DNA from: a virus
Taxonomy: Duplodnaviria > Caudoviricetes
Strand: one strand, 5' to 3'
IMG/VR virus record: IMGVR_UViG_3300031519_000068
Span: 1 to 40,258 of that record
DNA: 40,258 nucleotides
Each line of letters opens with the position of its first letter. The first letter of the stretch is position 1. The notes under the pieces were generated by a model that worked only from the letters and a program-made list of their open reading frames with translations, had not been told where the DNA came from and did not search any database. Positions 4,047 through 20,390 of this stretch are shown here, in pieces. The position numbers were made by a program, and so were the translations under genes.

Positions 4047-6068
4047 TTATTGTTTGATTAATTTTTTCTCTACACTACCATCATTGTAGAGGTAAAATAG
4101 AAGTTTGTTTTTACTTTGTTTTGTTGGCCTACCTAATAAATCAGTAATCATTATTAGTTCTTTTTTGTTTTCAATTCTACTTAGTATTGGTCCAACATAA
4201 GTTCCATCACAGTAGTTGTAAGTTAACTGACAAACCGTATCCCAAGCATTATCACAGCAATAATCATCTACTGAAATTACCCAAGCATAACAAGGATCGT
4301 TTAACCAATAAGGTAAACCAGGGCCAGTAACGCAAGTAGCATCATAAAGACAATTGTTATCACTAACATTGGCCTCGACAGAATAGTTATAGGCATTAAG
4401 ATCCATGCAACCTTCAACGATAGTAATACACGATTCATTTTCCGTGTTAGCCAGTGAATCATAGTTAAAAGCCGCTTGATCCATACACCCGTATAAGAAC
4501 TCAATACAGGTAAAATCCTCCGTATTTGACAAAGGATCATAGTTGAGCATAGAAGGATCCGTACAACCGAATACAAAAGGAGTACAGCTATTATTGTCAG
4601 CATTTGCTAGTGGGTTATAATTGAACATTACAGAATCTGTACAGCCGTATATATAAGGAATACAAGATCCATTATTTGTATTTGCTAGAGAGTCATAATT
4701 AAATTGAGTTGGATTTATACATCCATATATAACGGGAATACAACTACCGTCATCTACGTTAGCTGTAAGGGCGTAATTAAATGCTAAAGTATCAATACAT
4801 CCATAAACAACTCCGATGCAGCTACCATCATCTATGTTAGCCAGAGGGTCATAATTTAAGGCTATAGAACTCATGCAACCGTAAGCTATAGCAATACAAG
4901 TATCTGGAGTGTTAGCTAGGGGTTCAAAGTTAAAAGCTAGTGACTCCATACATCCTAAGATCACAGGTAAACATCCACCGTTATCTATATTTGCTATTGT
5001 ATCGAAATTAAAAGCTAAAGAATCAGTACAACCCCACTCTGCTTTTACATCACAACTACCATCACTAGTGTCAGCCACAAAACCTTGTGTGTAGTACTCT
5101 AGGTAAGATGAGTTGGTACAACCAAGAACATAAAAACACTGAGTGTTAGTATTAGCTGTATCTATATAGTTAAGTGCTAATGGATCCATACAGCCAAATA
5201 TTCTATCAACGCAGTAGTTACCACAATAAGTTGGCACAACGCGTTTGAATAGTGGTTGTATAAAAGGTGGTGCAACCTCTATCATAGTCATGCCTAGAGG
5301 ATTTGTTAGTTTAAAACCACAGTGAGCAGCTGACTGCATTCCTTGGTTTGATATTGAAAACTTAAATGATACTGGTTCAGGTGATTTTAAGTTTATTTTA
5401 AAGTCTTTAAAGTAAGCAATTGTGTCTAGTGTAAAATTCCAAACACTATCACCTTGTATTACTTCTAGGTTTGATGTTGGTGCCCAACCATCTCCAATTA
5501 AATCAGTTAGCGTTAGCGTAAATTCGCATGCTGGCACCAAAGACATTGTGTTAGCTAGAGCATCGTAATTGTACATTGTAGAATCTATGCAACCAAATAC
5601 TATTAAAGTGTTACACGAGCCGTCACTTGTGTCAGCCCTAGGATTAAACTCTACATAAGAAGAATCCATACAACCAAATATCGGTGGGCATGGAGCTACT
5701 AAAATAGCGTGAGCGGTATCATAGAAGAAGTTAGGCGTTGTTCCGTGTATTATAGTATCATAACATTGAACTACATAATACGATCCATCTAAACCACCCC
5801 AAAGAGCTCCGTTTAAACCATCGCCATAGCTATCTTTTATCGTAAAAGTTAAAGGACCAACAGGTAAACACCTTTGCTCTACAACAATACCATAATCAGG
5901 CTGGGACCAATACCCACTACCATCAGCAACTACTAATCCAGTTGAATCTTTTACATCCCAAGAAGTTTCACCTTGATATTGATCAAGGTTTATAATTATA
6001 GTAGTCGGAACACAGTTCTGACTAAACGATAATATTGGTAGTAATAATAGTAGTAGTAGTTTTTTCAT
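4047..6068 (-). CDS. Secreted Cys-rich repeat protein with putative T9SS C-terminal sorting domain
   Basis: Signal peptide MKKLLLLLLLPILSFS|Q; 13 GCxDxxAxNY..A..DDGSC-type repeats; DDYCCDNAWD module; C-terminus ITDLLGR...LFYLYNDGSVEKKLIKQ. Confidence 0.75.
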   Translation of the reverse strand: MKKLLLLLLLPILSFSQNCVPTTIIINLDQYQGETSWDVKDSTGLVVADGSGYWSQPDYGIVVEQRCLPVGPLTFTIKDSYGDGLNGALWGGLDGSYYVVQCYDTIIHGTTPNFFYDTAHAILVAPCPPIFGCMDSSYVEFNPRADTSDGSCNTLIVFGCIDSTMYNYDALANTMSLVPACEFTLTLTDLIGDGWAPTSNLEVIQGDSVWNFTLDTIAYFKDFKINLKSPEPVSFKFSISNQGMQSAAHCGFKLTNPLGMTMIEVAPPFIQPLFKRVVPTYCGNYCVDRIFGCMDPLALNYIDTANTNTQCFYVLGCTNSSYLEYYTQGFVADTSDGSCDVKAEWGCTDSLAFNFDTIANIDNGGCLPVILGCMESLAFNFEPLANTPDTCIAIAYGCMSSIALNYDPLANIDDGSCIGVVYGCIDTLAFNYALTANVDDGSCIPVIYGCINPTQFNYDSLANTNNGSCIPYIYGCTDSVMFNYNPLANADNNSCTPFVFGCTDPSMLNYDPLSNTEDFTCIEFLYGCMDQAAFNYDSLANTENESCITIVEGCMDLNAYNYSVEANVSDNNCLYDATCVTGPGLPYWLNDPCYAWVISVDDYCCDNAWDTVCQLTYNYCDGTYVGPILSRIENKKELIMITDLLGRPTKQSKNKLLFYLYNDGSVEKKLIKQ

Positions 6069-6069
6069 T

Positions 6070-6342
6070 TTATTGCGAGTCTTTTAAGTCTTGTTCAGAC
6101 GGAGCACCTTCGTCACCCTTCTTTCTCATTGTTTCCCCACGTTTTCTTTTAGCATGTATATTAGCCCACAATCCCTTAGATTCATGAAAAGGGCTTTTGT
6201 TCATTTTAAATGGACCTCCTTTTTTATGCGATACAACCTTACTGGTTTTACTATGTTTTGCGCCCGTGTGAACCTCACCGTCCATTTTATGTGTTTCACC
6301 CTTATACAAACCATCTTCCGTATAATGTTTTACTCCTTTCAT
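6070..6342 (-). CDS. Small basic His/Lys-rich phage protein (likely start at 6342, not 6396)
   Basis: ATG at 6342 directly follows the upstream stop at 6344; HYT..G.THKM.G.VHTGAKH and GLWANIHAKRKRGE motifs. Confidence 0.65.
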   Translation of the reverse strand: MKGVKHYTEDGLYKGETHKMDGEVHTGAKHSKTSKVVSHKKGGPFKMNKSPFHESKGLWANIHAKRKRGETMRKKGDEGAPSEQDLKDSQ

Positions 6343-6343
6343 A

Positions 6344-6625
6344 TTATGATTTTTTATGTTTTCTACAAAAGTTCCTAGCAGCTTCTTTACTGCCAAACCC
6401 CCACTTTGTTAAAGCTTTAGATAACTTACTTGGAGTTCCATTCTTGTCCTTCATATCCCCTTGCATATTACCAAACCTACAAGCGAAGCTTACTCTTCTA
6501 GGACTTGTACCACTAGTTAGCTTACTACCCATTGTAGGGTTTTCTTTTCTCATCTTACGGTTTTGCTTGTTATAAGATGCTTCCGTTATTTTAAGTGGAC
6601 CAACACTCTTGTTATTGTATGCCAT
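6344..6625 (-). CDS. Small basic phage protein, DUF6321-like
   Basis: SPRRVSFACRFGNMQGDMKDKNGTPSKLSKALTKWG resembles the RRKSFCARM..M.GPMKD..G.PTR..AL.KW phage motif. Confidence 0.6.
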   Translation of the reverse strand: MAYNNKSVGPLKITEASYNKQNRKMRKENPTMGSKLTSGTSPRRVSFACRFGNMQGDMKDKNGTPSKLSKALTKWGFGSKEAARNFCRKHKKS

Positions 6626-6626
6626 G

Positions 6627-6992
6627 TTAAAAGTCGCTCATTAATATATTGTCTATTTCTTCTTGTACTTCTTCTCTTGTAGCCATCATCTTAAAGCTAA
6701 GATCAGCTTGAAATCTAGCTACTTCAACTCCATCTTTAAATATTATAATAGTAGGTATAGCTGCTATTTTATGTTTTACTTGCATTTTAGGATTAGCTGC
6801 GATATCTACATATGCTAAAGTTTGGCAATCACTAAGGTCTTGAACCCAAGAAACCTCGTTAGCCGAGTTCCAGCTAGCGTTAAATTGAGATACAGATATT
6901 TGACCAGAGGCTTTTCCACATACACATACTAAAACAAGTACTAATAAGTATATACTAAAGATTTTCCAGGAAACATCTATTTTACTCATCAT
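6627..6992 (-). CDS. Exported thioredoxin-fold protein lacking CXXC
   Basis: Hydrophobic leader ending KASG|Q; FNASWNSAN at the WCxxC position; VDI and IAAIPTIIIFKDGVEVARF cis-Pro motif. Confidence 0.75.
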   Translation of the reverse strand: MMSKIDVSWKIFSIYLLVLVLVCVCGKASGQISVSQFNASWNSANEVSWVQDLSDCQTLAYVDIAANPKMQVKHKIAAIPTIIIFKDGVEVARFQADLSFKMMATREEVQEEIDNILMSDF

Positions 6993-7270
6993 CTTTTGTA
7001 GAGTTTATCTTCTATTCTTTCTAAGGTTTTTTTCATCTCATCTACATCTTTCTTTGTTTCCATGATTGTAGCTCTAATCATTTGATCCTTCATGTCAAAC
7101 TCCATACGAGTAACCTCTGGGTCTGGAGGAGCTGGTGATTCCATTGCTAAAGCAATATCAGCCTGTAGCATAAACCACATACTTATAACGGTTGCCATTG
7201 CAGCCCCAATACCTACCAATGTTTTTATACTTACTTTGAAGCCAGAGTCTTCGGTTAATTCTTTTGTCAT
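6989..7270 (-). CDS. Single-pass membrane protein with C-terminal coiled coil
   Basis: TLVGIGAAMATVISMWFML TM segment, Pro-rich linker, heptad-like IMETKKDVDEMKKTLERIEDKL; ATGA overlap with next gene. Confidence 0.7.
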   Translation of the reverse strand: MTKELTEDSGFKVSIKTLVGIGAAMATVISMWFMLQADIALAMESPAPPDPEVTRMEFDMKDQMIRATIMETKKDVDEMKKTLERIEDKLYKR

Positions 7271-7271
7271 G

Positions 7272-8351
7272 TTAAAATATAACGTAATTCATACCTAATT
7301 TAAAGTCGTACCAAGTTCTGTTCCAGTACCTATTGTATTTTCCTTCAAGAAAATAACCTAATTGTTTATTGTGTTTTATGCCATATATAAACCCTAAAGA
7401 GTAATCAGCCCATTGTCCGTCTACATAGTTGTGATAAGAAAACTCACTACCATCATCATAGTGGTAAGGCATAACACTAGCCCAAGCGTGCATCCAAGTT
7501 GATTTACTATATTTATAATAATCAAAACCCATAACCACAGAGTGCATTATAGTTTGTTTTAATTCGTTTCTTTTCTTTTCAGTGTAATCAGCCAAAACTT
7601 CTGGTATAACAACTGCCTCCCAAACCTCTGGGCTTGTAGCCACTAATTCACCTGACGGCGAAAAGTATTCGCTGCTATACACATCCACCGTATAACCTTC
7701 TTGTAGTGCTAAGTAAGTATAATGAATATCTCCATTATCTAACACCCACTCGTCTAATGGATTATAACCGTAAGGCTCCGCTAGTCTATGTGCTGCTCCA
7801 ATATTCCAAGATAAGTTTCTACTTTTTCTAACTCTATATCTTTCCGATGCTTCAAAGTATTTAATATCAGCAAATCCATCTTCTAAGTATTCTATTTTTA
7901 AAGCAAAGAAGTTTATACACATTTCATCTGGACAACCATCATCAGAGCTGTATCTAATAAAATGGTGTTGGTCCATATAATCTTTACCTTCTTGTCTTTT
8001 GTAGTCTACTTCGAATAAGTATTCAACCCCTCTTGACTTACCTACAACGGCTGCATCGCTGTAATTCGTCTCAGTACCATCGTAAAATGTTTGTGCTTTG
8101 TTTTCGTATCCGAATCTAGCTATTTTACGTAGTCCTATGGCGAAATTATAATCGTAAGGAGTTGAAATTGTTTGTGTTGATAATCCGTTGTTTACAGAAA
8201 AAACGTCTACATCAGAAAGCGATGTACCACCGTTTACCGCAGCATAAAACGTAGAGAACTTAAATAGCTTCTTAACACTCTCTTTATCAAATGATTGAGC
8301 TGTTACTATATTAGATACTAGTAATAGCGATATTATTAGTCTTTTCACCAT
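7272..8351 (-). CDS. Putative outer-membrane beta-barrel protein
   Basis: Signal peptide MVKRLIISLLLVSNIVTA|Q; aromatic-rich alternating strands; C-terminal YDFKLGMNYVIF resembling a BAM beta-signal with terminal Phe. Confidence 0.7.
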   Translation of the reverse strand: MVKRLIISLLLVSNIVTAQSFDKESVKKLFKFSTFYAAVNGGTSLSDVDVFSVNNGLSTQTISTPYDYNFAIGLRKIARFGYENKAQTFYDGTETNYSDAAVVGKSRGVEYLFEVDYKRQEGKDYMDQHHFIRYSSDDGCPDEMCINFFALKIEYLEDGFADIKYFEASERYRVRKSRNLSWNIGAAHRLAEPYGYNPLDEWVLDNGDIHYTYLALQEGYTVDVYSSEYFSPSGELVATSPEVWEAVVIPEVLADYTEKKRNELKQTIMHSVVMGFDYYKYSKSTWMHAWASVMPYHYDDGSEFSYHNYVDGQWADYSLGFIYGIKHNKQLGYFLEGKYNRYWNRTWYDFKLGMNYVIF

Positions 8352-8381: not shown

Positions 8382-8445
8382 TTACCTAGTTCTTGTTCTA
8401 GTTCTTGTTCTAGTTCTAGTCCTAGTGTTTGATCTTGTATTTGAC
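8382..8445 (-). repeat. Degenerate hexamer tandem repeat encoding the (RT)n C-terminus
   Basis: ctagtt/cttgtt units on the + strand; protein ends SNTRSNTRTRTRTRTRTRTR. Confidence 0.85.
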
Positions 8446-11400
8446 TTTGAGTTAGTTTTCTTTTTCTCTTTAATATCCTCTTTAATCTTTTCCATTTTTT
8501 TATTTTCAAGATCAAGGTTATATTGACTCCAACCTAAAAACATTAAAGATCTTTCCCATGCTGAATGATCGTTATTCAAAGCTTGTCTAACATTTTGTGT
8601 TTTATTGTACAATCTGTTTAAAGGTATGTTTGTAAGAGCTTCCGTATAATTTGTAACAGCGGACCATTGTGGGTTGTCAATATCAAAAGTTTCCATTTCC
8701 TTTATAACCTTTTTGTTATAATTAAGAGTTTTTTCAGCGTTAACTATTTTTCTACCTTTAATACCCAATACAGGTGATAAGTTTAACGCCTCTAACATAA
8801 CCGCGCTTTCATCTGGATTATAATCAACATCTCTTTGTCTAGCAAAAGCAATAGCTACGTTTTTCAATGTAGCAACCACACCACCAATTAAACCAGTACC
8901 TCTTAATACAGAGTCAATACTACCGTTTATTAACCTTTCTTTTTTCTTAAGAAATAAATTATTGTTATCTTCTTCGTCATCATCAAACATCATAGCAAAC
9001 AAAGCTGTTTGCAGCGTGTAGAATATTAAATTTTGCACGGCAAAGTAATATGTTATCCTAGACGCATTAGATATATCACTCTGCATTTGAGTCGTGTTAG
9101 GTTTTGTTATTCTTCTATTATATATATCCTGAAAAGCTTTCTTACCTAATCTATTAAACTGAGAGGTAACATTTTGGAAATTTAATATAACCTTACCAAT
9201 AACAGACGCTTGTTGCTTAGAGACCATATCAGGTCTTGCTGACTGCTGAGTAGCTTGAGTTATATCTTGAAAATCTGTAAATGCTTTAGCTTCGGCTTCT
9301 TTTTGACTTAAACCTTGTTTTAAATACGTATTTATTCTATTTCTATAGTAAGCAGCTCCACCAGTTGCAATAGCAATATTATCACCAATTTGAGTAGGCA
9401 TAAACCCTATTTCTAATAATTTAGATATTAATTTTCTAGTTATATCTTTAGAGTTACGCAGGCTAGCAGCAAGTTCAGCACCGTTAACATCAGTCTGTAT
9501 ACCACCTCGTCTTTGTTTTAACATGTCAGAATTAAATATAAACGACCAGTCAGCCCAATATTGTTTCTGATTAGCAAAAGCTTTAGCCGCTGCGAATACA
9601 TTGTTATCGGCAAAGTTAATGTAATTAACTATAGACATCTGCTGAAGCAATGCTGATCTCATATTAAAGAACATCACTGTACCAACAGAGCCATTTAAAA
9701 AGTTCATTAGCTTGTTGACCTGAGCGTTTTGTCCAGTTGGCCTGTTTCTACCAGTTTGAACTCTATATAATATATCTTCTAGAGATTCTCTAACTTCCTT
9801 GCCGTAACCAGCTTCAATTTTATTTAGATTTTCTTCAGAAAATATAACGTCAGCGTTTTCAATAAACTCACTAAAGAATTGTTTTCTACCTATTCTACCC
9901 GTAGCATCATCTAGATCCATTCTTATGTCACCAGAATTCCAACCTTCAGTTGGATTAACATAAGTTTCTTGTTTGGATATTATGTTTAAATTTTCAGCGT
10001 AAGCCTGTAGCTGTGGATCAGACTGAACTAACTCAGATAACTTAGCTTGATCAGTTTCACTCAATCCAGGTATTTTGTGACCATGTTTATTCCACAAGTA
10101 AACTCTTACAGCATCTTCAAAAGTAAAGTCACCATCTGGAGTTTTCTTTGTAAGTTTTTTCTTAACTTCTGGGAACTGTTTGTTTAATGCTTTGTAATCA
10201 TTAGCGACACTTTGTCTAGCTGTATCAAACTCTCTATTAGCTCTATTTAAAGGTCTAACTAAAGCTTGTTCAAGAAAATCTCTATGCTTATCACCTTCTT
10301 TACCTTTACCCATAAAGTTATATAATAACCCTACAAAATCCTCGTGAGATGGTGGTACGAAAAATCTAAACTTACCTTTACTTTCACCACGTTTTCTACC
10401 TTTAATAATAGAGAATCTTTTTATAGAATCAATACCAGTAACATTTTCTAATATATCGTTAAACTTTTCATTCATTGATTTACTAAACTTAACTCTAGCT
10501 TGCTGAACCTTAGATTTAACATCAAGTTGATTAAGCATGTTTTTAACAGCCTTCACGTTTTGTAGCGCATCGTCAGCAAAGTAAAAGTCGTTATAACCTT
10601 CACCAACTTTTTCAGCCATCCAAAGGGCTTTCGCCTCAGCAGTAGAACTAGCTAAGCCAGTAATATTTTTTAAAGGTATGTTTAAACCATTCGCTTTTAA
10701 AAACGCATGTATAGCACCGGCGGATTCTGCTGGTCTAGCTGTTAGCACAAACATACTTTCAGGACCAAACTTACCTTGCAATTTCATTGCCTTGTTAAAT
10801 AGTGGTGCTGTCTTGCCATCTACAACTTTAGTAAACTCTGAGAAGTCAAACTTATAACCTAGCTCTGAAAGGTTTTCGTAAGTACTAGCGTATTGCTCTG
10901 CGTTTAACGTACCTTTAGTTCCATCTGGTTTAGTGAATCTAATTAAAGATTTACTAGTAGCTAGAGTGTCATCAAAATCTAGAACAGTAATACCTTTTGC
11001 TGGGTTGTTGGCAGAACGAGAAAAAGAAACGGCTTTAGCTATGGTGTTCGATGCTTTGGTAGATTTAGAAAACTTCAATGAAGTATCTATAGCTTTAGCG
11101 AATCTCTTGCCATTTTTATCACTTAAAGCCATGGAAGATGTTTCAAAATTCGTGTCTTCTATTATGGGAGCAGTTCTAAATGTTAGTTTGTTACCTTCAC
11201 TAATCTGAACATATGCAATTAAATCTATACCTTTACTTCCTTTTACTAGCTTTAAAGGGTTTATTATATCCTTATTGTTTTTATTGTAAGTGTCTGTGAT
11301 ATTTTTGTGTAACAAATCTACATCTAAATTACCAGTTTCCATTAAGTATACTTGCTCGCCTAGCGCGATAATACCTTGAGGTGTACCTTTGTATTTACCA

Positions 11401-14400
11401 TTAGCATAAGCCCAGGTAATATACTTTTCACTATCCATGTTTACTTTTACTAAAAATTTACTTTTGTTTTCTTTTAACACTTGCACCTGATTGTCTGTTA
11501 AAATAAAATCATCACCCACCTTGCCTATAAGTTTTTCTATCTCTACAAATTTATCTTGTATTTTTTCAGCTATCTCATTGTCATAGGTTTTTTTATTATC
11601 TCTATGGCTTTTTGTTTCATTTGGATTAGCAAACTTTAATTTTAATTTATTACCTACTTTTTCAAAATTTATAACCTGTGAAACACCTCTAGCTTTATTT
11701 AGCTTAACTTCTATACCAGCTATCACGTTACCAAGGCTAAAGTAAACATCTCCTTTTCCAACAAAAGATTCAACTAATGAGTTTATATTTTTTAAAAATT
11801 TAAAAGCTTTTTCTCTAAATTTATTTTCATAAACAAGGCCTTGGTTTGGAGTTTTCCCTGTTTTTCTTGATTCTACAATAGAATACTCAACAACTTTTTG
11901 CCTGAATTGGTTTTCAGCTATTGAACCATAAATAGCATCGTTATTAATTTTCCAAACATGCTCTGCTATAAAATCTAGGTCAACTTGTTTTTTATCTGGT
12001 CGACCTCTACCTTTTTCTCTTTTTATGTCTTTTTTTAACTTGTAAACATCTCCATTTTTCTCAACAATATCATTGATATTAAGATCACCAGATTCTATTT
12101 GATCTACAAATTGATTTATATGGTGTGCGTTATCAACTTCTACCTCACTTAAAGAAAACTTAACATTATTCTCAGCACTTTTAGAAAACTTAACTCTTGG
12201 TTCTTGTACAACACCGTCTATTGTTACGGTTTTATAACCACCCGAAGCCATATCCGTAGTGCCGCGAGGCATGTCTATTCCTTTTTCATCTAGCCTTAGT
12301 TTTAACTTTACTTTTTGGCCTTGCATACCGTAGAATCTTTCGTGGGTAGGTGTTAAATAAGGTAGGTTTGTTTTTTCCCACCCAGTTACTGAGCCAGGAT
12401 CGTTAAACTCTTTAAAGTATTTTTGATTAACAGTACCTTCAATATTTATGGTCTCAGTATCTAGGAATCCATTTGTTTCAGTGAAAGATCTTTCATATTT
12501 AGTTATGTCGCTAAGCCTAATTTCTTCACTTCTACCTAATTGGGTTCCAACGCTAGCTTTTTTATCAATATAAGTTCTTTCTTCTTTAAAATCTTCCCTA
12601 AGTCCATCTCTATAGTTTTCAGTTTGTGTTCGGTAGTATTCGTTTGATCTTTTATTATCTTTTTGCACTTTGATAATTTCCCCATCAAGTTTGCCGTTCT
12701 TTCTTGTTACCTGCGAAACAAGTAGTCCATCAAGATCTTTTTCAATTGTTGTACCGTTTTTCTTATCACCAGTTACTTTTTCGTAATACAATAAGGTTTC
12801 TTTAGTTTTATCTACTTCTACAACCTCCTTAAATCCATCAACTTTTTTACCTCTTACAACAACACCAGTTGTAGGCTTGTCATTTTTATCCCACCAACTC
12901 ATATTATCACCATCTCTAAAGGCAATTAACCTACCATTCTGAAATGCTATTTTAAATCCATTTCCTTGTTTGTTGTAGTTCTTCCATAGTGCAAAAGCGT
13001 TATTAAGATTATATTCTGCGTTTTTTCTATCAATAAATATAACTACTTTTCCATCACCTTTAGTAAAACCTGGAAATACTTTATTAGCTTCTTCAACTCT
13101 ATGTTTTAAATCATTTTTCTTATCAACAAGTAATTTATCAACTAGTTTTCTTACTTTACTTTCTGCAGTGTTTTCAACAATAACTTCTAAAGATCCAAAA
13201 TCGTATTTTTCATTAAGATAGGTGTTCATTATAACATCTTGTATACCATCGTAGTTAACGGTACGTATTACGTCGCCATCATTAAAATCATTTCGTAAAC
13301 GCGCGCACAAACACCAATTATTAAACTTTGGACCAAAATGAGTGTCTGCTACTTTTCTAACGTCTAACTGTCCTTGTTTAGAATCTTCAACATCGTAAAC
13401 TGTAACACCACTAGTCAACTGGGTTTTATTAGAAAACGTTTTAACTTTATCTGGATCAGTTCTCTTAGACTTAGAGTCTTCAACGTATGCTTGCATTAAA
13501 ACATTAGGATCTTTTACGGAGAATGGATCTATTTTGTTTTTAGCAGCTAACTTCTCAGCCTCTATAACTTTATAACCATCTTCAGGTAGTATTAAGAAAC
13601 CATTAGCCATATAGTGCATAGCCATTTTCTCATACTTAGATTTTAAATGATTAGGGATAGCTTTATCATCAACAAAGTCAAATACAGATTGAACAGCCCC
13701 TTTTCTTTGCTTTTCAGTAAGATCAGGTCTTCTCTTAGTCAGTTGCTTCTCATAAGCTTCTCTGTGCGATTTAGAGAACTTAATTTGAGAATACACGTTA
13801 ACACTTCCCGAACCATTCATAGCTGCAGAGATGTCTTCTATCGCGTTACTCTTAGAGAATTTAACATTAACTTCTCTACCAATTGCAGCTCCTAGTTCAG
13901 CAACACTTCCTGGATCGATGTCCATACCAGCAATTCTATCTTGAACTTGATCAGATTGTCTAGCTTCCATGATTGCATCGGTAACTAAGCTATTAACCAT
14001 TCGCATTGCAAGACCATCTTTTCTAGTACCTTTTAAACCTTGCCTCAAGCCAGTTATAGGGTTTTTGCCCGGTTGATCAGCCCAACTTACCAACTCAGTT
14101 TCTGTTGGCATTACTTTATTATATAGAGAAGGTGAGAAAGCACCTTTACCAGTTTTCTTATCTTTTGTTATTTTGTTTAAAGCATCAGGAGGTAACTGCT
14201 CTTTGTTTACAGCATCTCTTACTTGATCTATAGAAGTTAACACCTTAACGAAGTCAGTAAATACTCTATCCGCTTCTGGAGTGTTTCTCTCCATTTGCAC
14301 TAAATCAGCCGTAGATGTGTTTTTTACGATGTCTTCTCTTAGCTTCTTTAACTGGGATATGTAAATATCCTTAGTGCCATATTGTACTTTTGTGTCAGCC

Positions 14401-17291
14401 ACACCATATGTCAAGAAGTTTTTAATCTGCTTGAAAAGAGGACTATTAAGATTAGCGTATTCTTTCTTTAGTTTAGCGGCAACGGCTTGAGCTCTTAACT
14501 GAACATCTGCAATGTTCTGAGTAGTACCATAAGCTATCATCAAACTTTTCTTAACGTTTTCTAGTACTTCATTATATATTTTATCACCTTCCTTAAACCC
14601 TAGCTTTCTTCTATACTCAGAATATTGTTGTTTATCAGCTTTTTCTTTTTTAGCTTGACCCTGAATGGATAAATCTTCTTCTTCAAAAGCTTCCATTTCA
14701 CTGGATTTTTCTGCTGCAACTTGAACTTTAACCTCACCTTCTTTAGTTGTCTTACCTATATCTTTAGCGCCTTTCATTTCGTCATCAACCTTGAACTCTC
14801 TGTTATAGACGTTACCAGCTTTATTTGATATTTGAGAATTCACCCAACCAAATAGACTATCATTAGATTCTGGCTTAAAACTCTTAACGTGACTAACTAA
14901 CTCAGAGTAAACTAAATCAACAAAATTACTAGGAACAACATCAGCTTTATATTTAGATCTTATTAACCCGTCAAGAAGCTTTTCGTCCTTCATACTCTTT
15001 ATAGCGAAGTCAGCACCTTGTTTCTTCCAGCTCTCATTAGTCCAACCCATTTCAGCCATACCATCTATAGAGTCTTTACTATCTTGCTCCATTGAAAATT
15101 TAGTGGAAGCAGTAGATTCTTTTTTGGAACCATCAACTAGTTTTCCTTTAGCGCCTTCAACAGCTACTTTTAGTATTGCTTTATTTATCTTACCACTCTT
15201 AATACTCTTGCTATAGTCTTTTACGAAGTTATAAACATCCTTACCAGTGTTGAAAGTAATTTCCTTCCCCAAATAATCCTGTGAAAAACCTCTAATAACA
15301 TCCCCAATTTTAGTAAAGAAGTTTTCCTCAAACTTCAAGCTACCATCAACTATTAACTCTGACATTATGGTTATAACCTCTTCACCAAACCCAGCGTCTC
15401 TCTTGAATTCGCCTTCCTTATTGTACTTCCCATAAGCAGCTAACCTCCTACCCAAAGCAGTGGCATCGCCACCTAATTTCTCAGCATGATCAATCAAAGC
15501 ATCTCCTAACCCACTCTGTATACTCTCATTATTACCAACAGTTTTGAATAAAACAGCATGCATAAACTCGTGGGCTGCTGTCCCCACCATCGGTTTATCT
15601 TTATTAAGTATTATCTTAAAACTACCATCACTCTTTTGTTGTATAAACCCATATTGTTCGGAAGCGCTCTTAGAATCTAAACCCTCTTCGTTCATACTCT
15701 CTATCTCAGCGGCTGTTAACTCAACGACACTACCTTTTTTCCCTGTTTCTTTAGAAAGTGCTTCGGCTTGTTTTACAATGTTAGCCGTGTTGATGATGGT
15801 TTTGATCTTGGTTTTACTAGCCTTAAACTTGTTGGTGAGACCCTCTACTGCCAAGCTGTGATCTTTTTCTGATATATTTCCATTAGCCAATTTCTTATTC
15901 AGCTCAGTAACCCTATAAGCAGCAACATCGGCTAAATCACCGAGGTTACCTATGTCGGATACGTTACCACTAGATAGTGATTCATATATTTTATTACCCT
16001 TCTTTATCTTATCGCTAATACTAGCTGTTAAGTCAATTATCTTGTCTTCAACAGCACTTTTTACATCTTCGTCTTTAGTTTCGCTGAATTTTCTCTTTAA
16101 GTCAACTAGGCTACTTAAATCAGCCTCAACATCAATATCGCTAACAGTCTTTCTAACATGTCCAATAGCTTTGGCTGAGTAACCGCCTCCCCTTAATCCT
16201 GCTCCACCAAAAAAACCTTGTAACCCACTTTCCACTCCTTCCTCACTAAACATTCCCTCTGCAACTGTTGTTGCTAGATTTATATCCCTACCCTCTCCCT
16301 TAGCTTTAGCTAGCTCTTTATTGTAAAACTCCAAACCATATTGAGTCATTTCAGTGAGGGCCTCGGTGCTACCAGTGGATACAACATCAAGCCCCACTCT
16401 AACAGCTTTATTAGTAGCATATCTCCTAGCTAAATCTTTACCGAGTTCTCTTGTTACACTTTTACCTCCAAGTGCTTTAGTAATTTTACCGAAACTAAAT
16501 AGCTCTAAACCAGCTTGAACAGCAGCTATTTTAATAGGAGTGCTAACGTCAGCTTCATTCGCTACTAGTAATTCATTTAAAGTTTTACCTTGTGATTCCG
16601 CTTTTATCTTATTTGCTTCTATAAAATTTTCAGCAGCAAAATCCATAAAGTAACCCGTTCCACGAGTACCAAGGTTGTAAACAACTGACCCACCAACATT
16701 AACAACTGCACCAGCAGCTACTGATAAATAGTCCAAAACACTATCTGCCTCTTTAAAGGTCATAGTTTGCTTTACTCCAGCCTTGTCGTTCCCAAAAGAT
16801 TCTATAACCTTCCCAAAAGTTTCTGAGTCAGAGGTACCAAAGTTCTGGAAGAACCCAGGAGATTCTTTTTTCCACTCCTTCATTTTCTCCCTACCAAAAG
16901 CCCCTTCCCAAATCAAAGTAGAGGCTATACTTAATCCCGAATAAGAACCTAAAGTGCCGTTTTCAAGAGCTTCCTCCACCGTGTCTTCATCTTGTGATAT
17001 ACCCCAAAATTCCAAAACATCACCTGACGTCTCTAGAGAATTCGATAAGTTGTTTTTTAAACTCTGCCAAGCCCCAATTTCAGGCTTACTACTCTTTGCT
17101 GTCGATTTTAATACCAAGGAACCATCCTCCGATTGTGATCCCATACCGTCTTGACTCATCGTCGGATCTACCGTCGAGTCTTGTGTTTTTCCCGCCTCTC
17201 TCTCTTTGTAAAGACGTACTACTTCTCTAATTTTTTCTTCTGGTTCCCCAGCATCCATCATTCCTTGAACTACACTTGTAATATCAGCCAT
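8382..17291 (-). CDS. Giant ejection / polyvalent protein (zincin, sigma-2-like, PD-(D/E)xK-like, HAD domains)
   Basis: 2969 aa; third gene of the post-tail ejection cluster; Gly/Ala hydrophobic N-terminal helices; HEFMH...EE; DFDDT/LTAR/K/FADD; repeated KFSKS linkers. Confidence 0.8.
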   Translation of the reverse strand: MADITSVVQGMMDAGEPEEKIREVVRLYKEREAGKTQDSTVDPTMSQDGMGSQSEDGSLVLKSTAKSSKPEIGAWQSLKNNLSNSLETSGDVLEFWGISQDEDTVEEALENGTLGSYSGLSIASTLIWEGAFGREKMKEWKKESPGFFQNFGTSDSETFGKVIESFGNDKAGVKQTMTFKEADSVLDYLSVAAGAVVNVGGSVVYNLGTRGTGYFMDFAAENFIEANKIKAESQGKTLNELLVANEADVSTPIKIAAVQAGLELFSFGKITKALGGKSVTRELGKDLARRYATNKAVRVGLDVVSTGSTEALTEMTQYGLEFYNKELAKAKGEGRDINLATTVAEGMFSEEGVESGLQGFFGGAGLRGGGYSAKAIGHVRKTVSDIDVEADLSSLVDLKRKFSETKDEDVKSAVEDKIIDLTASISDKIKKGNKIYESLSSGNVSDIGNLGDLADVAAYRVTELNKKLANGNISEKDHSLAVEGLTNKFKASKTKIKTIINTANIVKQAEALSKETGKKGSVVELTAAEIESMNEEGLDSKSASEQYGFIQQKSDGSFKIILNKDKPMVGTAAHEFMHAVLFKTVGNNESIQSGLGDALIDHAEKLGGDATALGRRLAAYGKYNKEGEFKRDAGFGEEVITIMSELIVDGSLKFEENFFTKIGDVIRGFSQDYLGKEITFNTGKDVYNFVKDYSKSIKSGKINKAILKVAVEGAKGKLVDGSKKESTASTKFSMEQDSKDSIDGMAEMGWTNESWKKQGADFAIKSMKDEKLLDGLIRSKYKADVVPSNFVDLVYSELVSHVKSFKPESNDSLFGWVNSQISNKAGNVYNREFKVDDEMKGAKDIGKTTKEGEVKVQVAAEKSSEMEAFEEEDLSIQGQAKKEKADKQQYSEYRRKLGFKEGDKIYNEVLENVKKSLMIAYGTTQNIADVQLRAQAVAAKLKKEYANLNSPLFKQIKNFLTYGVADTKVQYGTKDIYISQLKKLREDIVKNTSTADLVQMERNTPEADRVFTDFVKVLTSIDQVRDAVNKEQLPPDALNKITKDKKTGKGAFSPSLYNKVMPTETELVSWADQPGKNPITGLRQGLKGTRKDGLAMRMVNSLVTDAIMEARQSDQVQDRIAGMDIDPGSVAELGAAIGREVNVKFSKSNAIEDISAAMNGSGSVNVYSQIKFSKSHREAYEKQLTKRRPDLTEKQRKGAVQSVFDFVDDKAIPNHLKSKYEKMAMHYMANGFLILPEDGYKVIEAEKLAAKNKIDPFSVKDPNVLMQAYVEDSKSKRTDPDKVKTFSNKTQLTSGVTVYDVEDSKQGQLDVRKVADTHFGPKFNNWCLCARLRNDFNDGDVIRTVNYDGIQDVIMNTYLNEKYDFGSLEVIVENTAESKVRKLVDKLLVDKKNDLKHRVEEANKVFPGFTKGDGKVVIFIDRKNAEYNLNNAFALWKNYNKQGNGFKIAFQNGRLIAFRDGDNMSWWDKNDKPTTGVVVRGKKVDGFKEVVEVDKTKETLLYYEKVTGDKKNGTTIEKDLDGLLVSQVTRKNGKLDGEIIKVQKDNKRSNEYYRTQTENYRDGLREDFKEERTYIDKKASVGTQLGRSEEIRLSDITKYERSFTETNGFLDTETINIEGTVNQKYFKEFNDPGSVTGWEKTNLPYLTPTHERFYGMQGQKVKLKLRLDEKGIDMPRGTTDMASGGYKTVTIDGVVQEPRVKFSKSAENNVKFSLSEVEVDNAHHINQFVDQIESGDLNINDIVEKNGDVYKLKKDIKREKGRGRPDKKQVDLDFIAEHVWKINNDAIYGSIAENQFRQKVVEYSIVESRKTGKTPNQGLVYENKFREKAFKFLKNINSLVESFVGKGDVYFSLGNVIAGIEVKLNKARGVSQVINFEKVGNKLKLKFANPNETKSHRDNKKTYDNEIAEKIQDKFVEIEKLIGKVGDDFILTDNQVQVLKENKSKFLVKVNMDSEKYITWAYANGKYKGTPQGIIALGEQVYLMETGNLDVDLLHKNITDTYNKNNKDIINPLKLVKGSKGIDLIAYVQISEGNKLTFRTAPIIEDTNFETSSMALSDKNGKRFAKAIDTSLKFSKSTKASNTIAKAVSFSRSANNPAKGITVLDFDDTLATSKSLIRFTKPDGTKGTLNAEQYASTYENLSELGYKFDFSEFTKVVDGKTAPLFNKAMKLQGKFGPESMFVLTARPAESAGAIHAFLKANGLNIPLKNITGLASSTAEAKALWMAEKVGEGYNDFYFADDALQNVKAVKNMLNQLDVKSKVQQARVKFSKSMNEKFNDILENVTGIDSIKRFSIIKGRKRGESKGKFRFFVPPSHEDFVGLLYNFMGKGKEGDKHRDFLEQALVRPLNRANREFDTARQSVANDYKALNKQFPEVKKKLTKKTPDGDFTFEDAVRVYLWNKHGHKIPGLSETDQAKLSELVQSDPQLQAYAENLNIISKQETYVNPTEGWNSGDIRMDLDDATGRIGRKQFFSEFIENADVIFSEENLNKIEAGYGKEVRESLEDILYRVQTGRNRPTGQNAQVNKLMNFLNGSVGTVMFFNMRSALLQQMSIVNYINFADNNVFAAAKAFANQKQYWADWSFIFNSDMLKQRRGGIQTDVNGAELAASLRNSKDITRKLISKLLEIGFMPTQIGDNIAIATGGAAYYRNRINTYLKQGLSQKEAEAKAFTDFQDITQATQQSARPDMVSKQQASVIGKVILNFQNVTSQFNRLGKKAFQDIYNRRITKPNTTQMQSDISNASRITYYFAVQNLIFYTLQTALFAMMFDDDEEDNNNLFLKKKERLINGSIDSVLRGTGLIGGVVATLKNVAIAFARQRDVDYNPDESAVMLEALNLSPVLGIKGRKIVNAEKTLNYNKKVIKEMETFDIDNPQWSAVTNYTEALTNIPLNRLYNKTQNVRQALNNDHSAWERSLMFLGWSQYNLDLENKKMEKIKEDIKEKKKTNSKSNTRSNTRTRTRTRTRTRTR

Positions 17292-19949: not shown

Positions 19950-20390
19950 TTATTTTTTTGTAAAGTTGTTTGTTAGATATTTAAAGCCTTCGTTCTGCAC
20001 GGGAACTAACATCCAGTCTAAACTTTCATGTATGCTTGTCATTTGTTTGTTGCCGCAAATAGTAAACAACTGCATTATACCAATTTTTTCTGCTTCTTTT
20101 TCTACGTTTGTTACTAGAGTTTTTATTATTTCTCTTCTATCTTTTTCTTTGTAATCAGGGTTAGACACCAAATAAGTTGTCCAACCCACTACGTGTGGTT
20201 CCATTATAAATAAAAAGTAACAAGCTACTGGCACTCCATTTTTTTCTACAACAAAACACCTTTCATCTTTTGGTAAAAAAGCTCTACCTACAGGGTCTCT
20301 ACCTCCGCGCTTCCACCACCATTCCCACCAACCACAACAAACCTCATAGTCTCCCTCTCTAAAACATCTAAAGTTAATATTATCTATCAT
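19950..20390 (-). CDS. GNAT-fold acetyltransferase-like protein
   Basis: FVVEKNGVPVACYFL, YLVSNPDYK..R, L....EKEAEKIG...LF; position before the ejection genes as is common in podoviruses. Confidence 0.7.
   Translation of the reverse strand: MIDNINFRCFREGDYEVCCGWWEWWWKRGGRDPVGRAFLPKDERCFVVEKNGVPVACYFLFIMEPHVVGWTTYLVSNPDYKEKDRREIIKTLVTNVEKEAEKIGIMQLFTICGNKQMTSIHESLDWMLVPVQNEGFKYLTNNFTKK

Follow-up and report, generated by a model that had tools for sequence, protein, structure and literature searches.

The question raised by this locus is why a single short peptide motif should recur along one giant phage protein that also carries a zincin-like metallopeptidase domain. The window, that is, the whole stretch of 40,258 nucleotides that was analysed, is a virus record (IMGVR_UViG_3300031519_000068), 71% complete, with a crAss-like structural module on its minus strand. 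A sequence-only reading had taken the motif, [VILT][KS]FS, for the cleavage site at which the zincin releases individual effectors after ejection, and possibly also for a joint at which cassettes are exchanged. The motif is referred to below as the tag.

Genome setting of the giant ORF

The structural module comprises genes for terminase, portal, capsid, rings and muzzle, a GNAT gene, genes for proteins of 240 and 626 amino acids (aa) and the giant ORF. The C-terminus of the 2380-aa gene product matches the crassvirus muzzle; the GNAT gene, the 240-aa and 626-aa genes and the giant ORF then follow. Gene order and family matches place the giant ORF (8382..17291, minus strand, as are all of its features given below; 2969 aa) in the cargo-gene position of the crAss-like module. 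The available portion of PMC10172136 describes the genes that follow the muzzle in crAss001 as encoding the injected cargo proteins, and a virion location of the giant protein would follow from synteny with crAss001 gp44-gp50. Its gene position suggests that the giant protein is virion cargo, packaged and injected, and the likeness of the module to those of crAss-like phages points to a host among the Bacteroidota.

The GNAT acetyltransferase gene lies at 19950-20390, between the tail and cargo genes (Pfam E 6e-4). Downstream of the giant ORF, positions 4047-8351 encode a possible outer-membrane barrel of 359 aa, a TM/coiled-coil protein, another that resembles thioredoxin, and one of 673 aa in which GCxD repeats rich in Cys occur.

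The N-terminal region of the giant protein (aa 1-515; 15747..17291) is variable, has few motifs as measured by held-out motif density and contains a single moderately hydrophobic stretch at aa 185-203. At the other end, a C-terminal domain of ~700 aa (8385..10475) is conserved in the family alignment and is without the motif in the same density analysis; the protein terminates in a low-complexity basic (RT)n tail (8382-8450). The named clusters nearest to the C-terminal domain are LPD39 (28% of members) and LPD38 (88%), at scores of 0.94-0.95 that serve as a lead only. The giant ORF sits in the virion/structural gene module and joins biochemically disparate domains in a single reading frame, namely a zincin, a PD-(D/E)xK-like domain and a Pnkp-like HAD domain, and on both counts it is probably a phage polyvalent protein. 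ART-PolyVal or LPD23 is carried by relatives, and ART-PolyVal is present in P0170, a relative with the same C-terminal domain and tag. None of the LPD Pfam models was matched by the window protein; scanning its full length against Pfam and PHROG, and searching cultured phages by tblastn, yielded nothing useful, and family searches recognised no virion RNA polymerase in it.

Copies of the tag in the window protein

Eight copies of [VILT][KS]FS are present in the giant protein, at aa 730, 1143, 1170, 1700, 1710, 2072, 2088 and 2267, against a mean of 0.45 and a maximum of four in 5000 shuffled sequences, none of which reached eight. Since the pattern was picked after the sequence had been seen, the held-out tests described below weigh more than this enrichment. 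Pattern matching recovered every copy where it had first been read: TKFSM at the post-zincin joint (motif 1, 15090..15104), VKFSKS (motif 2, 13848..13865), IKFSKS (motif 3, 13767..13784), VKFSKS (motif 4, 12177..12194), VKFSLS (motif 5, 12147..12164), LKFSKS (motif 6, 11061..11078), VSFSRS (motif 7, 11013..11030) and VKFSKS at the joint before the C-terminal domain, hereafter the pre-C joint (motif 8, 10476..10493). The close pairs read at three of the five junctions are likewise present, with spacings of 27, 10 and 16 aa, as is the variation in Ser codons between copies (TCA, TCT and AGT). All eight copies lie downstream of the zincin, as had been claimed, although the domain is preceded by one looser copy, RKFSET (aa 401; profile score of 8.4). 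The 21-aa spacer between the paired motifs 2 and 3 (13785..13847) moves with the WC cassette; the 27-aa spacing occurs in 20 cases, and a small peptide would be released if both flanking tags were cut.

In structural models the surroundings of the tag vary. The residues STKF of motif 1 form a short strand in the zincin model, for which no pairing strand was apparent. In a model of aa 1690-2300, motif 4 (aa 1700) is disordered, motif 5 (aa 1710) is of low confidence and directly precedes the first helix, and motif 7 (aa 2088) is at a helix end. Motif 6 (aa 2072) lies inside a confidently modelled helix (pLDDT 88-91) and motif 8 (aa 2267) in a helix of low confidence, both of which count against a cleavage site. 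The expectation that domain boundaries coincide with the motifs is borne out in that folds lie between tags, but not for the copy at aa 2072.

Distribution of the tag in the family

A search with the C-terminal domain found 4031 relatives, of which the best 120 were analysed; further sets consisted of 40 distinct viral loci, 114 WC-bearing proteins and the best 150 of 1437 matches to a zincin profile. The family motif is broader than the window pattern and reads (V/I)-[KQR]-x-S-[KR]-[ST]. Alignment of 136 proteins at the post-zincin joint shows Ser in 129 and Phe in only 26; position -2 is K/Q/R and position +1 is K/R. At the pre-C joint most of 138 proteins read V/I-K-F-S-K, with F in 124 and S in 127. 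A profile was trained on these two joints and then run on 93 held-out full-length relatives, clustered at 50%. Per 1000 aa, the density of tags was 0.12 in the N-terminal region, 0.05 in the zincin core, 4.6 after the zincin, 1.27 in the middle, 21.8 at the pre-C joint and 0.05 in the C-terminal domain. Giant proteins held 94 matches in 90,059 aa and the other ORFs of the same loci five in 87,013 aa; the tag is therefore not a general tag of virion proteins.

Because relatives have inherited the same joints, junction counts are not independent. A strong tag was missing in 11 of 137 de-duplicated relatives, which counts against a cleavage site. De novo motif searching of 14 distant WC hosts found RYSL in P0234 and FSKS in P0212, and most of the 14 were dominated by MORN or other words. 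Taken together, the alignments and profile matches support the tag as a family-wide marker of domain and cassette boundaries in a family of thousands of proteins.

Level at which the tag is conserved

Codon choice shows that the tag is conserved at the level of the protein and not of the DNA. Its Ser is encoded by AGY at 42 and by TCN at 40 of 82 sites, and KFS is encoded by 13 different 9-mers. This diversity makes it extremely unlikely that the tag is a translated DNA recombination site of the shufflon type, an explanation that would account for the sharp end of homology at the tag and for a skew of the Val/Ile codon at -3 to GTT and ATT (25/29 and 10/13, against 56% and 46% in controls). 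An initial excess of AAG for the tag Lys vanished against Lys-Phe controls (28/47 against 298/524, p 0.76) and was rejected.

A purely structural role, as a helix N-cap or as a linker that lets adjacent modules fold, would agree with the helices that follow or contain several copies. It is nevertheless very unlikely, in that no capping box accompanies the tag (E/D/Q at +3 has a frequency of 0.08 against a background of 0.18), the same tag stands before unrelated downstream modules, and Ser at the pre-C joint gives way to K (8 proteins), T (1), A (1) or P (1) and never to Asp or Asn. A DNA-level site and a generic helix cap both fit the tag poorly.

The zincin and its relation to the tag

The zincin-like metallopeptidase (MPTase) domain, delimited by conservation and by a model, covers approximately aa 516-715 (15147..15746). 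Its motifs are as they had been read, HEFMH (H574, E575 and H578) at 15558..15572 followed by EEVIT at 15369..15383, which contributes E638 as the third zinc ligand, and both are conserved in the family. In a set of 140 proteins chosen by H[ED]xxH (two others of 142 were 5'-truncated), H574 and H578 are present in all, E575 in 136 (Asp in four) and E638 in 139, and the zincin Glu is present in 147 of 147 representatives. Judged by the zinc-binding and catalytic residues kept, the zincin looks catalytically intact. The model (mean pLDDT 78) has the MPTase layout of three strands, an HExxH helix and a Glu helix (strands 2-7, 30-34 and 40-45; helices 53-67 and 117-131). The folds it matches best are those of zincin peptidases and related proteins, at a Z of 4-6 that is weak and below trust level; Foldseek gave no match at E<=0.001 for this model or for that of aa 1690-2300, and a PDB sequence search with the zincin profile returned nothing.

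The residue at +1 of the tag bears on whether the zincin reads it. Glu at this position, in place of Lys/Arg, is rare overall and agrees between joints 1000 aa apart of the same protein (first against last joint, 6/1/6/114; 3/2/1/96 after de-duplication by zincin). The window protein has a Lys-type zincin, P0090 and L014 a Glu-type one. Glu at +1 tracks the zincin more closely than the adjacent C-terminal domain, the nearest neighbour being also Glu in 7 of 14 cases against 3 of 14, with 8 changes on the zincin tree against 12 on that of the C-terminal domain. Covariation of motif and zincin amounts to three to four independent pairs, which is not significant and of low power, and P0095 is a counter-example in which a Lys-type zincin (97% identical to that of P0013) is combined with Glu-type tags.

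If a different protease, of the host or an unrecognised one of the phage, cut the tags, the zincin could be directed at peptidoglycan or host proteins. The available parts of 10.64898/2026.04.10.717836 and 10.1101/2020.03.07.982082 propose a peptidoglycan role for domains of this kind in phi24B gp47 and phi14:2 gp65, and the window's incompleteness leaves room for another phage protease. This explanation is quite unlikely, since tag variants follow the zincin more closely than the neighbouring domain, albeit with little power, and S78 and ClpP proteases are absent in five of five near-complete related genomes (the S77 search lacked a positive control).

Four lineages with H-D-x-x-H instead of HExxH retain their tags, which counts against cleavage: if these zincins are inactive, the tags persist without cutting. 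H-D-x-x-H zincins occur in L014, L021, L022, L027, P0033 and P0046, and the tags there have changed to the FSE or ESK type. Relatives that were at first counted as zincin-less carry HDxxH, and that class was rejected.

The retention of tags in the HDxxH lineages and the helical state of one tag copy in the model would suit a signal that is read uncut, for docking or for pacing packaging, unfolding or threading through portal and tail, with the zincin or the C-terminal domain possibly binding it. The virion RNA polymerase (vRNAP) of coliphage N4 also has an HExxH domain, which is needed for encapsidation, and is packaged unprocessed (available parts of PMC5512222 and PMC13434306), a caution for any reading that invokes cleavage. 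Such an uncut signal is unlikely in that the catalytic Glu is retained in all but four of the 140 zincins, the remaining genes in cargo position are without a tag, and so are the 500-aa N-terminal region and the 700-aa C-terminal domain, which also need ejection.

Cassettes between the tags

The four segments bracketed by tags had been labelled sigma-2-like, WC/MORN, PD-(D/E)xK and HAD. Fold matches uphold the last two labels, the first is weakly supported, and MORN was not found in the window protein.

Cassette A (~410 aa; 13866..15092) belongs to a family of 203 pieces and its start weakly resembles sigma-70 region 2. Four of 30 members match a SigI model (best E 0.0076, weak), the match to RpoS is weak as well (E 0.64), and Pfam Sigma70_r2 was not matched.

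The optional WC cassette (12195..13766; NWC at aa 1325) is mobile between positions and scaffolds. Neither the Atlas nor a PDB sequence search with the WC profile gave a family or fold for it, and the window WC segment had no match to MORN; MORN_2 occurs only in distant WC-bearing proteins. The cassette is an insertion in the window protein relative to L023-L026, and in L013 it is placed between the HAD module and the C-terminal domain. Of 111 host proteins, 91 carry a tag in front of it (8.2 expected), many of these having been inherited jointly, and a tag comes after it in 24 of 25. Scaffolds of other kinds place the cassette after a tag of their own, RWS in P0233, and R-[FYW]-S occurs six times downstream of HExxH in that protein. 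P0233, P0234 and P0232 are unrelated polyvalent proteins of 3400-5000 aa in which WC stands behind R-[FYW]-[SA] tags of their own.

Cassette B (11079..12146; GD...EVK, aa 1847-1863) is predicted to be an HhaI-like PD-(D/E)xK nuclease, as the model of aa 1816-2071 matches HhaI endonuclease moderately (Z 8.8, rmsd 3.8, 171 residues aligned). Scans of viral and metagenome contigs with this cassette found the window's own contig only. The same slot is filled by at least seven alternative families of ~320-430 aa (L001, L004, L038, P0001, P0008, P0012), with conserved residues of either the D...ExK or the EH type; slot-B cassettes had no Pfam match. Nucleases of the PD-(D/E)xK type and of the EH/HNH type seem to alternate among these families; the EH-type families are presumed to be HNH-like, and one weak HNH match was obtained.

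The HAD module (10494..11012; DFDDT, ARP and FADD) is predicted to be a Pnkp-like end-healing phosphatase. The model of aa 2097-2254 matches the 3'-phosphatase of T4 Pnkp (Z 10.4, rmsd 2.5, 119 aligned), the domain matches phrog_415 (E 0.002), and the DxDxT, T/R, K and DD motifs of a Pnkp-type HAD are present together with the HAD fold. A P-loop kinase with Zeta_toxin/AAA_33 matches is found just past DFDDT in P0002, P0011, P0015, P0018, P0019, P0032 and L017, and the kinase-in-phosphatase arrangement in these is that of a Pnkp-like end-healing enzyme.

Homology breakpoints and cassette exchange

The suggestion that the tag serves as a cassette-exchange joint holds for swaps of whole cassettes, the ends of which fall within residues of the tag Ser, but does not extend to most homology breakpoints. 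Alignment of homologues showed cassettes swapping at FS, yet 860 of 1095 breakpoint clusters were more than 25 aa from any motif. The 235 clusters within 25 aa compare with 131 expected, and so small a share counts against the cleavage reading, as does the insertion of a P-loop kinase within the HAD domain without any motif in seven inspected relatives.

Taken from the side of the tags, the association is closer. A breakpoint lay within 25 aa of 162 of 220 internal motifs (94.5 expected). An independent test on HSP ends covered 137 proteins de-duplicated by zincin. Where a motif was at most 40 aa away, 67 of 118 alignment ends fell in the 10 residues before the motif Ser. In a separate analysis of left-side breakpoints, 57 of 183 fell 1-5 residues past an [FY]S serine. 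Between P0020 and P0007, identity drops from 95% to none at AFS. L024 and L026 share a DNA identity of 94.9% over 4965 bp that begins exactly at the post-zincin tag, and P0152, which has a different zincin in front, matches the window's cassette A at 92.6% beginning with the tag. Blind cutting of 303 proteins at their tags yielded 755 pieces in 115 families, which were recurring and length-coherent, in the recurring order of cassette A, optional WC, slot B and HAD.

There is much mosaicism inside cassette A, and divergence within it diluted the signal of an initial breakpoint test that took in every change-point. Counts of plain FS within 10 aa (103/275) and a right-side peak were discarded as inflated by FDFSEF in the HAD domain.

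Proposed mechanism

On balance the tag is probably a cleavage site of the built-in zincin, at which the modules of a packaged and ejected protein would be freed. We infer the position and timing of the cut, and the virion location, as follows. The giant protein would be packaged whole and ejected unfolded. The tag would be bound by the zincin in extended-strand form and cut at the Ser, which is nearly invariant, or directly beside it; a cut at F|S, which is a guess, would leave an N-terminal Ser on each product. The N-end rule is the ground for this guess. Cutting would take place after packaging, most likely upon refolding in the host, and would set free a sigma-like factor and a nuclease together with the WC module and a Pnkp-like phosphatase for end healing, with the N- and C-terminal parts serving packaging or ejection. 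New cassettes would survive only when fused directly behind a tag, and homology would end at FS as a result of selection for a cuttable joint.

In its wider form the proposal states that a 'magazine' protein which processes itself is injected by marine crAss-like phages, that the short cleavage code read by the zincin co-evolves with the zincin, and that any enzyme placed behind the code is released separately as an early effector. This extension is put forward tentatively, as slightly more likely to fail than to hold. If true, it would represent a DNA-phage counterpart of the polyproteins of RNA viruses, combined with the swap logic of polymorphic toxins and with lineage-specific codes.

Processing of polyvalent proteins into functional units by the MPTase was proposed by Iyer et al. 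in 2017 (available part of PMC5512222). The portion of its main text available names no cleavage site or linker, and its supplementary alignments may show the tag. No paper naming such a tag was found in the literature searched, which left subscription papers mostly uncovered, and the available parts of 10.1101/2020.03.07.982082, 10.64898/2026.04.10.717836, PMC7824862 and 10.1101/2023.09.18.558157 contain no such tag in a polyvalent protein. The present family gives the self-processing proposal a defined site, a catalytic residue that can be mutated (E575) and thousands of relatives. Natural variants are on offer in the form of Lys- and Glu-type tags and HDxxH zincins, and the self-processing hypothesis becomes directly testable. 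The tag also provides an objective guide for dividing giant proteins that lack annotation into their separate modules; in the present family, such cutting exposed the nuclease slot with its alternative families and the predicted end-healing phosphatase, which may be delivered at infection.

Comparison with known systems

The giant protein resembles the phage-type polyvalent proteins described in the available part of PMC5512222 in its giant size and in combining an HExxH-E zincin with several enzyme modules of unlike kinds. Unlike those proteins as they are presented there, it has a defined tag at every joint. With the Crassvirales cargo block (phi14:2 gp65-67 and crAss001 gp45-50), as far as the sources describe it, it shares the position after the muzzle and a zincin in a giant cargo protein. 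Cleavage of fused forms has been suspected for that block; the vRNAP of N4 is packaged uncut (available parts of PMC13434306, 10.1101/2020.03.07.982082 and PMC10172136). The giant ORF differs from both in its array of swappable cassettes.

Short-motif module junctions have a parallel in the self-cleavage of Rhs proteins at DPxG. As at the VENN motif of CdiA (available part of PMC3150448), sequences in this family diverge abruptly after a short peptide that marks the limit of exchangeable modules. CdiA and Rhs proteins carry one C-terminal toxin with an immunity gene, whereas the giant ORF, beside which no immunity genes were seen, has three to four tandem internal slots between conserved N- and C-terminal domains.
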